A stretch of DNA of 64,000 nucleotides, taken from an uncultured archaeon (GTDB taxonomy: Archaea; Asgardarchaeota; Thorarchaeia; Thorarchaeales; Thorarchaeaceae). A model generated the notes under the pieces. The model saw only the letters and a program-made list of their open reading frames with translations, ran no database searches and was not told the DNA's origin. Positions 53,612 to 57,802 of this stretch are shown piece by piece (position 1 is the first letter of the stretch; each line of letters starts with the position of its first letter). The position numbers and the translations under genes were made by a program. The DNA lies in contig CAZLEV010000005.1 in the NCBI GenBank assembly GCA_964558645.1, positions 32,001 to 96,000 of the forward strand. The letters run 5' to 3'.

Positions 53612-54439
53612 TTACCCCTCCCGGATTATTTCAATACCCAGCTGTTCTAGCATCGGAATGAACATATCACGTTGCTTTGCATTCGTTCCCTTCCAGTCAA
53701 CTACGGCGGCAATGACCTTCTCTGCGGACCGATGAATCATCTGATCCACGACCTCCTCCGTTATGCCGTCCAGAGCATACTTGGGAGCCATATGCCCGAC
53801 CCTGTATTCCCCCGAGAGAACTAGTTTGTTGAACTTGCTAGCGTAGTGAGTGCCCCCAAATCCTATGACGCTTGCAGTCCCAATGGGAGCATCCGCACAC
53901 CTCATGACAGCCTCAGCAACGACACTTGCCCCCTCTTCATGCGTCCAGTAGTGTTCATCACTACCGAGCTCTACAAAGAGCATTGGTGTATCAAGTGCGG
54001 TGGGTCCGTGATGAGTTACCTCAAGCGAAACGTCGAAATCCGAGAGATTGCGCTCGTTTCTCTCGTGGTAAAGGGTTTGAAGTGCTACTGAGACCAAAGA
54101 TGCAACTGATACAGACAGCGAGTAGGGACGGCCTCCAAATGCAGCCTCAGCTCCAAGATTACCCGTGCTGTGAACAAGCAGAGATGGTTTTCCTGATTCG
54201 GAGCGATGACGAGAACAGAAAATGAAGACCTCAGCTTCCAAGTATCTCTCAAGATGGTCGGAATAGATGAGATCGCGATTAGACGTGACGAGCTGAACTG
54301 AGCCATTGTGCGCCATGACAGGATGACCGTCGAATTCACTCTCGGTCTCAGTGAACCCATGTTCATCTATGAGAGCTTGTCTTATCGTCTGGCTGGCCAA
54401 GTCATGCTCAGACGTCACGAGTATCCTCAGAACCAACAC
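53612..54439 (-). CDS. dtdA: D-aminoacyl-tRNA deacylase (archaeal DTD2)
   Basis: D.AS, SRHRS, HSTGN, EVTHHGP, FVELGS, GFGGTHYA, GHMAPKY, DWKG. Confidence 0.93.
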   Translation of the reverse strand: MLVLRILVTSEHDLASQTIRQALIDEHGFTETESEFDGHPVMAHNGSVQLVTSNRDLIYSDHLERYLEAEVFIFCSRHRSESGKPSLLVHSTGNLGAEAAFGGRPYSLSVSVASLVSVALQTLYHERNERNLSDFDVSLEVTHHGPTALDTPMLFVELGSDEHYWTHEEGASVVAEAVMRCADAPIGTASVIGFGGTHYASKFNKLVLSGEYRVGHMAPKYALDGITEEVVDQMIHRSAEKVIAAVVDWKGTNAKQRDMFIPMLEQLGIEIIREG

Positions 54440-55685
54440 CTTCAGGTAAGTTAACGATGCACTCCTTGAGGAGGGGCTCCAGAGTCACACCCAGATCAAT
54501 CGTGACTTTCTTGCCCAGATTCTTGGCTATCTCAGCCTCAATGCGCCTCTTGAAGTCCTCAGCTTTTTCGAGCTGCTTCTTGATGTCGTCGCGAATTCGA
54601 AGCAGGTCGTTGTTATGATACTGAACATTCTTCTCTGCTTCTCGGACCATTCCCTCAAGTTCCGCGGTCTTACGGTATATCTCGGACCCGGCATACTCCT
54701 TCCTCTTGCGGTCTATCTCCTTTGCCTTGTCCTGGTATTCCTGTAGCTCGCCTTTCTTGATGAGCTCTATCTCCTCTATAGCCCTTCTTGCCAATCGATC
54801 TTTCAATGGGAATGCATCGCGCTCGATGGCGGTCTCCATCGCCTGCAAACCCTCCAGTAATCCCGGACAGCCATCGGGTTCCTCCACGATAGCCTCGAAG
54901 GGGTCATCGAAATAGTCTGTCAGGGCCTTCTGGCCAGATGGACTCACTCGGACACCGGTATCGTGCTGCAGAAACTTCTTGATAGGCTTCTTGAGTGTGT
55001 TCAGTTTCATCCTCAGAACGCTGCCGATATGCTCGGACTCTTCATCAAGACTGAGAACCTCAGAGACATTGGATTCGTTCTTGAACTTCTCCAGTTCTTT
55101 CTTTGCAGCCAGATAGTCCTCTTCCGCCTGTTTGATTTTCATCTTCGTCTGGCGTATGTCTTCCTGAATAATGTCCTTGCTGAAGGTGAGTTCCCGTAGG
55201 GTTTGGATGCGTTCAGCCGTACGTTCCAAGTCTTGTACCCAGCTGTACTCGTACAGGAGCTTCCCAATGATCTTCAGTTCCTTGCTCAGCTCTTTCATGT
55301 AATCATCCAGCTGCTTTATGGTGCCCTTGTGCTTCTTGTCCATGCGCTTGATCCAGCGAGCACCAGCCCCCCAGAGTTCTTGGATGAAGTGTTGAATCTC
55401 CTCCATCATCTGCTCAGTACTCTCGTAAGATATCTCTTGGCTGACGTCAAAATCCTCAACGACACTGTCAATCTTCAGGGCAAAACGTACTGCTATGCCT
55501 ACTGACTCTTGGTCTTCATCTTCGGCACTTGCTTCCCTCAGTTCTGATGCAACTGCCTGAACGTCCTTAAGGGCCCTGTCAACATTGCGGTAACTCCTCT
55601 CAGCCTTCTTCCTGAAGTCCTGCGACTTCTTCTCCAGTTCTCTGTTGTACCATAATTCCAGCTGCGCAAGAGTCAGTTCCGTCAT
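54408..55685 (-). CDS. Coiled-coil hypothetical protein
   Basis: Charged heptad-rich ORF. Confidence 0.75.
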   Translation of the reverse strand: MTELTLAQLELWYNRELEKKSQDFRKKAERSYRNVDRALKDVQAVASELREASAEDEDQESVGIAVRFALKIDSVVEDFDVSQEISYESTEQMMEEIQHFIQELWGAGARWIKRMDKKHKGTIKQLDDYMKELSKELKIIGKLLYEYSWVQDLERTAERIQTLRELTFSKDIIQEDIRQTKMKIKQAEEDYLAAKKELEKFKNESNVSEVLSLDEESEHIGSVLRMKLNTLKKPIKKFLQHDTGVRVSPSGQKALTDYFDDPFEAIVEEPDGCPGLLEGLQAMETAIERDAFPLKDRLARRAIEEIELIKKGELQEYQDKAKEIDRKRKEYAGSEIYRKTAELEGMVREAEKNVQYHNNDLLRIRDDIKKQLEKAEDFKRRIEAEIAKNLGKKVTIDLGVTLEPLLKECIVNLPEGVGSEDTRDV

Positions 55686-55852
55686 TCCCGAAGACACCTA
55701 GACAAGTAGTCGCCTTCTGTGTGATTTATCAACTTTGCGAACTACTCAACTGCGCACCGGACTCCAACGTGCAGATAATGTTATTCATGCCACAGATTAC
55801 GTTTATAACACTCCAAAAGAAGGGATAGTCAGTAAATGAAACGTGGTCTCTA

Positions 55853-56656
55853 ATGACGGAAATCATGGAAACCGGCCGACGCTTCCCACGACTGGACATT
55901 GCGTATGCAATCGAATGTATGTCATGAGGCAAAGGTCGCACAGGTTTCTACATCAAGAGGCTGAGTTACATAGACTCCGACTCAATGGAACAACTGCTAC
56001 TCAAGAATCCAGCTGATAATCAGAGTGGGTTCTGGGTGTCATACAAATACAATGGTCAGCTATGCAGGGTGAGCTCCACAGAGACCGAGTGCTTCTCAGA
56101 TGTCAAGACGGCACCCGACGGCGAGAAGCTTATCGTGACCTTGGACCACACTCCTCTCGATTCGGTCGAGAAAGTCATGCGATTCAAAATAGAGCTCTGG
56201 AGCTTCGAGAAGCCTATGCTATTCATCAAGCACACATCGGCGAACATGAGTAAGGCACCTATCGAAGATCTAAAGCTCTTTAACCTCATGGACTTCGACC
56301 TCGGAGGACCAACTAGCTATAAAGATGACATGGGAGCGTTCGATGCCAAAGGCGGAGTCATGAGGGTCTGTGATGACACACCACTATGCGTAGTTCTGAC
56401 GTCTAGACCCACTCCCGATGGCTGGGAGATCTCGGCTCCAACGAAACTGCGACTTTCCGAGACTGACCGGGACCTCAAGAATAATCTTGAGCTTGGCCCA
56501 CAAGACGTTGCCACAGGGCTGCAATGGAACTTGGGCAACATCGATGCAGGCGAATCGAAATCAGTGTCCCTAGTGATGACGGTCGGACAGAATACTGAAG
56601 AGGCGGATAAGCTCCTTCCAAAGGCCTGGGAAGAGTTCGACACGAAGATACGATGA
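55853..56656 (+). CDS. Putative selenoprotein (CxxU; Sec codon 55925-55927), beta-sandwich-like body
   Basis: In-frame ATGs at 55853/55865, TGT ATG TCA TGA, then open frame into the ORF at 55985; SECIS-like hairpin at the stop. Confidence 0.8.
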
Positions 56657-56719
56657 CGTCGGTGCGTAAAGCACTGCAGCACCGACCGAGAAAGGGAAGC
56701 CCCCTTTATCTTCTACGTG
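56641..56719 (+). promoter_or_regulatory. Eukaryote-type SECIS element
   Basis: ATGAC 56653-57 / CGAG 56687-90 core, 8-bp GTCGGTGC:GCACCGAC stem, apical AAA, lower helix GAAGATA:TATCTTC. Confidence 0.8.
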
Positions 56720-56744
56720 CGTGTCCCCTAGAGAAAAAAGTCAA

Positions 56745-56770
56745 GACGGGAAATCAAGAGACCTCCCGTC
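56745..56770 (-). terminator. Hairpin plus T-tract after the wHTH gene
   Basis: GACGGGA..TCCCGTC; minus strand continues ttgactttttt. Confidence 0.5.
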
Positions 56771-56775
56771 TCAGT

Positions 56776-57159
56776 TCACATGCTGTGTTGCGTTTCAAGG
56801 TGATGCACCAAGAGTCGTGCAGAAGAGCTTAGTTGAGCACTACGCCCTCTGTTCTCGGAATCACCACCATCCAACAGCCCCAGGTCCATGAGCGACCGCA
56901 AGTTCCACTTCGTCGTGGAATATGGCACATCTGTTCTCCTTGAGACCATGTCAGCCAAGGCCGTCACAGTCACATCATGATGGCGTAACAGTGAGGCACT
57001 CACTCTCAGAACCAGTTTCTGAGTGTCGCTCAACCTGGCCTCTGCTAGCTTGAGGAACGAAGCCACAACACTCTCGAAGGAAGGCATCTGATAGAAATAG
57101 CTGTCTCCGAAGACCTCACGGTCACTTGAGAACACATTCACCTCTGGGGTGAATTTCAT
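56776..57159 (-). CDS. Winged-HTH DNA-binding protein
   Basis: LSDTQKLVL...VTALAD...VPYST.KWNLR.L.DLGL. Confidence 0.8.
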   Translation of the reverse strand: MKFTPEVNVFSSDREVFGDSYFYQMPSFESVVASFLKLAEARLSDTQKLVLRVSASLLRHHDVTVTALADMVSRRTDVPYSTTKWNLRSLMDLGLLDGGDSENRGRSAQLSSSARLLVHHLETQHSM

Positions 57160-57307
57160 TGTCACCCTTTCGGTCGCTGACCCGACACTGATGGGCATCT
57201 GTTGCTGAATTGGTACCCATTTCGCTTTTTCACCTCATTCTCTTATTTGGGTCAGGTTTAGGTCTGCAGAATTCGCACTTAAACCTTGAGGAAAAGAGTA
57301 CGCGACA

Positions 57308-57802
57308 TCAGGTCATCTCTTCAGGAATCTCAAGACCTAAACTCTTGAGTTTGGCGAAACCCTTGCTGTAGAGGCTCATATGGTGACGTATGTCTTCCTC
57401 AGTGTCCGCGATGGCTTCAAGTGCACCTGCAATGTCGTCAAGTCCTCCAGCCCGGTAGTCATCCATCATCTCGGCAACAATGTCACTCATTCGCAACATT
57501 GCATCCTGTATCACCCCGCTCAGGCTGATCATTGACTGTACCGTCTCACGAGTAGAAGGGTCTGGCATATACGGGAGGAAATCCTCAAGCGCAATGCTTG
57601 CCTGTCTGCAACTCTCAATCCTGCCAGGTATCAGTTCGTCCTGCATCTTCTGCATCCATCCCAGCCGCTCTTCACTGGTCAAATCGCGAAGACTGGCGGG
57701 GGAGAAGTAGGTAGTCCAAGGGCCAAATTCCTCGGTCTCATAGTAGATCCAGTTGTCAAAGGCTGACAGCACTGTCTTCCATCCCACAGACATCTCGGAC
57801 AT
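57308..57802 (-). CDS. Hypothetical helical protein
   Basis: Intact ORF, protein-like. Confidence 0.7.
   Translation of the reverse strand: MSEMSVGWKTVLSAFDNWIYYETEEFGPWTTYFSPASLRDLTSEERLGWMQKMQDELIPGRIESCRQASIALEDFLPYMPDPSTRETVQSMISLSGVIQDAMLRMSDIVAEMMDDYRAGGLDDIAGALEAIADTEEDIRHHMSLYSKGFAKLKSLGLEIPEEMT

Follow-up and report, generated by a model that had tools for sequence, protein, structure and literature searches.

We report a gene that spans an in-frame UGA codon in a 64,000-nucleotide (nt) stretch of DNA from an uncultured archaeon of the Thorarchaeia (G000:C5:32001-96000, hereafter the window); the assembly has 3.6 Mb with 50% G+C, and its relatives are labelled Candidatus Thorarchaeota. 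On the grounds of sequence comparison, positions 55853-56656 of the window very probably encode a cytoplasmic selenoprotein of 267 residues whose family is specific to Asgard archaea and so far unlisted, a reading to which we assign a probability of about 0.9. The frame is open except for a single TGA, which lies within E-C-M-S-U-G. Gene callers place here a 223-residue "hypothetical protein" that begins after this TGA; with the TGA read as selenocysteine (Sec, U), the product has 267 residues and contains C22-M-S-U25. The features of the gene are as follows.

55853-56656, + strand: complete coding sequence (CDS) of the predicted selenoprotein, 267 codons plus the stop codon TGA
55853 and 55865, + strand: in-frame ATG codons, read in the sequence
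55916-55918, + strand: TGT codon of Cys22, the C of CxxU, which is Cys in 19 of 20 aligned Thorarchaeial orthologs
55925-55927, + strand: in-frame TGA, read as selenocysteine (U25) in view of its conservation across orthologs, with TGA in 19 of 19 aligned loci
55985, + strand: annotated ATG (Met45) of the 223-residue open reading frame (ORF), which is the truncated C-terminal part of the 267-codon CDS
56654-56656, + strand: terminating TGA, which is at the same time the UGA of the AUGA core of the selenocysteine insertion sequence (SECIS), as in 19 of 20 orthologs

The TGA is conserved together with the protein on both of its sides. When 40 relatives were searched in six frames, 21 of the 24 genomes of the same family proved to have the gene, at identities from 96% down to 34%; nearly all full-length matches ran from residue 1 or 2 to about residue 267 and contained a single in-frame TGA, which was at the same codon in all 20 orthologs. 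A wider profile search, of 301 Asgard genomes, extended this to 63 of 76 further Thorarchaeia genomes, again with one TGA in essentially all full-length matches. In the 20 aligned orthologs, U lies within the conserved block P-R-L-D-x-x-Y-x-x-E-C-x-S-U-G-x-G-R-x-G-F-Y-x-K-R-L-S-L-I-D, and the start codon (ATG, or GTG in two) is exactly 24 codons 5' of it. The entropy by codon position in 19 aligned loci was 0.83/0.42/1.45 in the 24 codons before U and 0.79/0.55/1.34 in the 20 codons after it, and was flat (1.66/1.65/1.74) in the 30 nt 5' of the ATG; the coding-type pattern before U shows that the N-terminal extension evolves as coding sequence. The annotated Met45 is unconserved, being replaced by Gly, Lys or Asn in other genera, and residues 26-44 are among the best conserved in the protein without a conserved start codon. 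The TGA was also kept in contigs X3 and X4, which are independent metagenome assemblies of related strains from two other studies; a contig from a freshwater-sediment run has the whole stretch at about 96% identity, and a second is from a microbialite run. The strain changes in the N-terminal extension, at 55858 and 55873, are both at synonymous third positions. The conservation of the TGA and of the hairpin in about 60 orthologous loci is far beyond chance.

A preliminary description made from the sequence alone had proposed a hidden selenoprotein at this locus, and all of its features are found at the positions it gave. It had expected conservation on both sides of the TGA, and homologs do start 24 codons upstream of the TGA rather than near 55985; U occupies the aligned position, except that one Thorarchaeial ortholog and the distant CxxC homologs have C there. 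Its CxxU motif holds for this protein, as C22-M-S-U25, but is not universal, since the Cys at position -3 is absent from one Thorarchaeial ortholog and from most Lokiarchaeota-type homologs.

The RNA element at the 3' end of the gene consists of the following parts.

56644-56713, + strand: eukaryote-like SECIS with a three-way junction, recognized by its fold, its covariation and its likeness to the vhuU elements
56644-56649 with 56708-56713, + strand: lower helix (as first outlined, 56644-56650 with 56707-56713), the 5' strand of which is formed by the last codons of the gene
56653-56656 with 56688-56689, + strand: core of AUGA with GA (AUGAC at 56653-56657 with CGAG at 56687-56690)
56658-56665 with 56679-56686, + strand: upper helix of 8 base pairs (bp)
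56666-56678, + strand: apical loop, GUAAAG...
56691-56696 with 56702-56707, + strand: side hairpin of the GGG/CCC type

The 77-nt element has a minimum free energy of -27.2 kcal/mol (z = -4.8 against dinucleotide shuffles). Common to the 20 aligned 3' ends are (A/G)UGA, which is invariant, an 8-bp helix whose sequence varies, a loop of the GUAAAG type, an invariant AG in the 3' core, the GGG/CCC side hairpin and the lower helix; T19, G20, A21, A54 and G55 are invariant in the 20 SECIS sequences, as is the apical AAA. The core is GUGA instead of AUGA in two orthologs, L015 and L030, and in L030 translation stops at a TAA within the apical loop. RNAalifold found compensatory changes at 11 of 11 predicted pairs in the 20 orthologs, including every pair of the upper helix, and a three-helix covariance model detected the element behind every Thorarchaeial ortholog tested (62 matches, 42-91 bits). 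In an alignment of 61 distinct sequences, which was fitted to the model and is hence biased to the structure, 81% of the cells pair compared with 43-48% in slid controls, and the covariation score is 0.53 compared with at most 0.16; the upper helix is 93.8% paired and all eight of its pairs change on both sides, while the side-hairpin core is paired to 85% and the lower helix to 75%. An unfitted MAFFT alignment gave the same picture. The distance from the Sec UGA to the SECIS is 726-732 nt across the orthologs and about 729 nt here. The eukaryote-like SECIS described earlier is thus present with the pairing drawn for it, conserved and covarying. In L022, L023 and L024, UAG stands for GAG at the 3' core, which would turn the second of the sheared A.G pairs in the kink-turn into an A-U pair.

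A genome scan revealed two vhuU genes in the same genome, with the D-C-U-x-x-C nickel motif and with SECIS elements at G000:C4:144336-144425 and G000:C7:167266-167355. In both elements AUGA is separated by one nucleotide from an 8-bp stem with a GUAAAGAUGUGA loop, and the GA core follows; the stop is within the AUGA, and a side hairpin and a lower helix are again part of the fold. The core, the stem length and the GUAAAG loop of the SECIS of the new gene are the same as in both of them. The published eukaryote-like SECIS elements of Asgard archaea (lokiSECIS, PMC4989117; type I eSECIS-like, PMC11227280) resemble it in the 3' kink-turn AUGA...GA, the upper stem of 8-9 bp and the A-rich apical loop; its GUAAA matches the G[U/G]AAA apical loops in Thorarchaeial frhA (Huang et al. 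2024, PMC11227280). A stop UGA embedded in the AUGA is likewise present in Loki VhuU.1, and a SECIS so close was argued to be unable to serve the adjacent UGA (Mariotti et al. 2016, PMC4989117). Unlike in the published Asgard selenoprotein genes, however, the Sec codon here is near the N-terminus, 726-732 nt from the SECIS, and the conserved side hairpin with its three-way junction differs from the published Asgard elements as described in the main texts of Mariotti 2016 and Huang 2024, neither of which mentions a side hairpin. This hairpin, which follows the 3' GA of the kink-turn and precedes the 3' strand of the lower helix, is common to the present gene, to a small ORF elsewhere in the genome (see below), to both vhuU genes and to the 3' untranslated regions (UTRs) of the Lokiarchaeota-type loci L121-L150. 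We also considered read-through of the second UGA to a second UxxC and rejected it, since the downstream frame varies in sequence and length and is conserved solely at V-K, the two residues encoded by the GUAAAG loop.

The genome encodes the full set of Sec machinery, which the preliminary description had named, apart from PSTK, as a check: tRNA-Sec (59.8 bits), PSTK (KTI12-type), SepSecS (399 bits), SelB/EFSec (291 bits) and SelD (405 bits), all above curated cut-offs. These genes are clustered at G000:C13:3583-6254 and G000:C4:167839-169066, where SelB/EFSec is directly upstream of SepSecS and PSTK adjoins tRNA-Sec. The SelD match is within an open frame of 749 residues, which suggests a fusion. 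No tRNA was found within the window. Five Thorarchaeial genomes without the gene were checked for SepSecS: two had no match, one had a marginal match and two had the gene for SepSecS. The two genomes lacking SepSecS are small and 91-93% complete.

Homologs beyond the Thorarchaeia were found by reading upstream of weaker profile matches, and belong to the Asgard families f9, f16 and f24. In f16 and f9, an in-frame TGA is at the aligned position and is accompanied by a SECIS, which suggests that both the protein family and this element predate the Thorarchaeia. The f16 gene reads M-I-V-E-S-R-M-L-C-S-K-U, and its 3' element is composed of AUGA-UU, a 7-bp stem, a UUAAAG loop with the stop inside it, and GAGA. 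In f9, the database relatives of which are labelled Lokiarchaeota or Promethearchaeota, a homolog of 305 residues is present in 57 of 61 genomes with one TGA in every full-length match, within the motif I-V-L-K-V-x-F-N-x-x-[F/L]-A-T-U-N-x-x-G-Y-L-M-G-F. Among these Lokiarchaeota-type proteins a Cys at -3 is confined to one genus, but there is a conserved Cys close to the C-terminus. Variation in the 12-13 codons preceding U falls mostly on third positions. At the start of the f9 genes (L126-L150), a conserved ATA is found about 36-39 nt before the TGA and 6-9 nt after GGAGGT, with GTG or TTG in one genus; several loci show stop codons between the GGAGGT and the ATA, and, outside that genus, no ATG, GTG or TTG precedes the TGA. 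A putative non-AUG (ATA) start is thereby implied in most f9 homologs. The 3' UTRs of f9 carry a SECIS of the same layout, with lower helix, AUGA, 8-bp helix, A-rich loop, GA and side hairpin. The f24 homolog is a CxxC form.

Cys forms are also found closer to the present gene. At locus L056 (G276, Thorarchaeota FT1_004), TGT (Cys) is at the Sec site, in the context E-C-S-S-C-G (gene L056:494-1303, - strand). This gene keeps a SECIS-like element (L056:439-523, - strand) that scores 53 bits compared with 80-88 in its genus peers; the lower score, a single case, fits relaxed constraint. Distant full-length homologs from Promethearchaeota-labelled Asgard metagenome-assembled genomes, found by an exhaustive profile search, carry Cys in the same hairpin, as CxxCxxC in P0062, P0064, P0086 and P0149 and as CxxC in P0067 and P0093, and in a joint alignment with these homologs the U column is an invariant Cys. 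The fragment P0053 has W at the Sec site, which looks like a gene caller reading TGA as Trp, and all other database entries carry the name "hypothetical protein" and have their start downstream of the TGA. The ortholog L030 has Ile at the position of Cys22 and no Cys anywhere in the protein. The C-terminal two-thirds of the protein, with the acidic motif D-F-D-x-G-G...D-D, are also found N-terminally in large transglutaminase-like and CarboxypepD_reg-containing proteins, which are without the Cys/Sec hairpin.

The AlphaFold2 model obtained with the 20-sequence alignment has a mean predicted local distance difference test score (pLDDT) of 88.9 and a predicted template modelling score (pTM) of 0.89, and shows an all-beta sandwich with two C-terminal helices. 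Residues 1-21, which are encoded 5' of the UGA, contribute two strands to the modelled sandwich (residues 2-5 and 13-21). The whole chain matched (Foldseek, with E 5e-9, and VIA-align) the N-terminal supersandwich of glycoside hydrolase (GH) family 15, that is, of glucodextranase and glucoamylase, with Z of 23.4 and 22.5 and a root mean square deviation (rmsd) of 2.5-2.6 Å over 226-227 residues; the higher Z was that to 1ug9 (Z 23.4, rmsd 2.5 Å, 226 residues). Further structural matches were to GH94 and GH116 (Z 19-21), GH149, GH65 and GalM-type epimerases, and overall the supersandwich matches had Z of 17-23 and rmsd of 2.5-3.1 Å over 226-246 residues. The top 50 of each structural search were almost all supersandwich domains of glycoside hydrolases and phosphorylases or GalM-like ones, with no thioredoxin fold among them. 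The model and the structural searches thus agree with the earlier guess of a galactose-mutarotase-like fold rather than a thioredoxin fold, and we predict a galactose-mutarotase-like supersandwich with confidence. The protein resembles the N-domains of GH15, GH94, GH65, GH116 and GH149 (1ug9, 1lf6) over its whole length. Unlike the GH15-type enzymes, however, it stands alone without a catalytic (alpha/alpha)6 domain, and identities are 8-16%. To our knowledge, no supersandwich domain of the GH15/GH94 type carries Sec or a CxxC hairpin. The CxxU selenoproteins with a thioredoxin fold form the Rdx family (SelW, SelT, SelH and SelV). The present protein is similar to them in having CxxU in a loop, which suggests selenenylsulfide redox chemistry, but differs in its all-beta supersandwich and in that the Cys of CxxU is dispensable in some lineages.

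Upstream of the CDS, the following signals can be recognized.

55802-55808, + strand: TATA-box-like TTTATAA, 51 nt 5' of the start codon, with a putative role as promoter
55826-55828, + strand: in-frame upstream stop codon TAG, read in the sequence
55843-55848, + strand: Shine-Dalgarno-like GTGGTC, 4 nt before the ATG

A TTTATA(T/A) box is present 47-56 nt before the aligned ATG in 17-18 of 20 orthologous loci, and a GTGRT motif is 5-9 nt 5' of the start in most of 19 orthologs, with the rest of the upstream 30 nt unconserved. Transcription would start downstream of the TATA box at 55802, and translation would start from the ATG at 55853. At the UGA at 55925, Sec would be inserted from Sec-tRNA(Sec) delivered by the archaeal EFSec/SelB, and this delivery would be directed by the kink-turn SECIS that straddles the end of the gene about 729 nt downstream. 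We propose that a ribosome at the UGA at 56654 has already unwound the lower helix and the core, and that this UGA therefore terminates translation. The proposed decoding is modelled on the known Sec systems of Asgard archaea and eukaryotes.

In the predicted structure, strands 2 and 3 are joined by a flexible, Gly-rich loop that carries Sec25, with Cys22 beside it. We infer that the most likely role of Sec is that of a redox-active nucleophile, at about even odds. Sec25 would then cycle via a selenenylsulfide with Cys22 in the Thorarchaeia or with the conserved C-terminal Cys in the Lokiarchaeota-type proteins. Sec is the sole invariant chalcogen residue, and a second Cys is kept per clade, at -3 or in the C-terminal tail, as is typical where a catalytic selenol is paired with a resolving thiol. 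A reading of U-G-K-G-R as a C-X5-R phosphatase or ArsC-like loop was discarded, as the spacing of the Arg misfits and the loop is unconserved between clades.

Three other explanations have to be weighed. If the TGA were a true stop, the locus would hold a 24-codon upstream ORF and a separate downstream protein starting at the ATG at 55985 or at an earlier alternative start; the hairpin would then serve in termination or stability. Such an arrangement is consistent with the database gene calls, all of which start after the TGA, and with the hairpin lying where two convergent genes end, a place at which a terminator is expected. However, it does not account for an unconserved Met45 preceded by well-conserved residues 26-44 without a conserved start, nor for residues 1-21 being part of the predicted fold or for the replacement of the TGA by Cys in one ortholog and in distant homologs; the hairpin, moreover, has an invariant AUGA...GA kink-turn core and a vhuU-like GUAAAG loop and no T-run. 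We consider a true stop highly improbable, and we regard as equally improbable that the UGA is read by a near-cognate or suppressor tRNA (Trp, Cys or Arg) instead of Sec-tRNA(Sec). The W in P0053 is the sole point in favour of the latter, is nothing specific and looks like the gene caller's choice of code. TGA is an ordinary stop in this genome, including that of the gene itself, the covarying SECIS is present together with a complete Sec machinery, and the two Thorarchaeial genomes without SepSecS are also without the gene.

A genuine selenoprotein in which Sec is a ligand of a metal or cluster, with the N-terminal hairpin as a metal knuckle (Fe-S, Zn or Ni) that is perhaps completed across a dimer, is a less likely alternative to redox catalysis, with something like one chance in four. 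The Sec of archaeal hydrogenase and formate dehydrogenase ligates metals, and this precedent, together with a Sec loop that is poorly ordered in the apo model, speaks for such a role. The CxxCxxC clade (P0062, P0064, P0086 and P0149) has one more conserved Cys, its fourth, six residues ahead of the invariant Asn131, and a set of four Cys is typical of cluster or zinc sites. This fourth Cys is, however, unconserved in the present protein; the Thorarchaeial proteins have only two candidate ligands (C22 and U25), and L030 and most Lokiarchaeota-type homologs have one. Several observations weigh against, or lend no support to, the interpretation as a redox-active selenoprotein that we prefer. No Rfam family, SECIS models included, was found in the window at the gathering threshold. 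The Sec loop (residues 21-30) is the least confident part of the model, with a pLDDT of 54. The protein has no Pfam, NCBIfam or PDB sequence match and no named family by ESM-Atlas features, which leaves its function without annotation support. In X9, the one metatranscriptome with the gene, it is represented by only two contigs of 151 nt, which map inside the gene body, cover neither the TGA nor the SECIS and so do not bear on the N-terminus. Two genomes have SepSecS and no match to the gene. Finally, L030, being devoid of Cys, implies that an intramolecular selenenylsulfide is not obligatory and that an external reductant must suffice there.

In a homology-based survey of more than 400 genomes, seven Asgard selenoprotein families were listed: SelD, FrhA/VhuU, HdrA, FrhD/VhuD, Prx-like, AhpF-N-like and DsbA-like (Huang et al. 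2024, PMC11227280). The same seven families are given in a 2026 review, and subsets of them in Mariotti 2016 (PMC4989117), Sun 2021 and the 2024 Atabeyarchaeia paper. The present protein does not belong to any of the seven, as it has no Pfam or NCBIfam match and its fold differs. Its family is in none of the Asgard selenoprotein lists published in 2016, 2021, 2024 and 2026, a comparison that covers their main texts, and a wider full-text search of the literature returned nothing on it. The candidate new family of the preliminary description is therefore absent from the lists in these main texts, and the gene is a new selenoprotein family using the already known Asgard recoding system.

The gene is part of a block at 53612-57802 of the window, composed of DTD2 (D-aminoacyl-tRNA deacylase), a 429-residue coiled-coil protein, the selenoprotein, a 140-residue winged-helix protein and a 164-residue protein. 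The order and orientation from DTD2 to the 164-residue protein are kept across 20 orthologous Thorarchaeial loci, as far as each locus extends. This neighbourhood was rejected as a guide to function, for the syntenic neighbours are on the opposite strand and absent beside the Lokiarchaeota-type homologs. In all 30 f9 loci, a gene for a 320-residue Ras-family GTPase (Ras domain at residues 153-317) is directly upstream on the same strand, at L121:446-1408 (+ strand) and in the same way in L122-L150, and one likewise directly precedes the Cys form of f24 on the same strand (L060:1363-1800); the GTPase is absent at this place in the Thorarchaeia. A GH38 mannosidase beside one Lokiarchaeota-type gene was dismissed as a clue to function, being unconserved.

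Outside the window, at L033:1476-1816 (G000:C9, minus strand), the same genome has an ORF of 96 codons whose product has a membrane helix at its N-terminus; the single in-frame TGA of this ORF falls within the conserved motif P-D-N-R-T-U-[E/D]-x-Y-E-Y-I-D. The ORF is followed by a SECIS of the three-way type (42.8 bits with the R1 and 52.6 bits with the R2 covariance model), and homologs with TGA and SECIS are present in two further genera. No Pfam or NCBIfam family matched this ORF, which is a candidate for a second unlisted selenoprotein.

The family is Asgard-specific and without annotated relatives, and adds to a published selenoproteome of seven families, each of them discovered through its homology with known selenoproteins. 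Its spread among the sampled genomes (63 of 76 Thorarchaeia and 57 of 61 of the Lokiarchaeota-labelled family) is about that of the commonest known families. Since the database entries are truncated at the UGA, the fold and the likely active site have stayed invisible. We know of no precedent for Sec on a supersandwich fold. SECIS-first or conservation-first searches still yield selenoproteins that are missed by homology, and the roughly 90 further natural SECIS elements, with rich covariation and a side hairpin, could refine the models of the transition from archaeal to eukaryotic SECIS. We tentatively suggest, as a broader possibility that we hold to be rather doubtful, that the protein is an ancient selenoenzyme of early Asgard archaea with an orthologous three-way-junction SECIS in the Thorarchaeia, the Lokiarchaeota-type lineage and a third lineage, that it represents a new class of Sec active site on a supersandwich of the carbohydrate-binding type, and that it is the partner of the upstream Ras-family GTPase in the Lokiarchaeota-type and related genomes. 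If this were true, it would be among the most widely conserved Asgard-specific selenoproteins, and one that was missed by all homology-based surveys.

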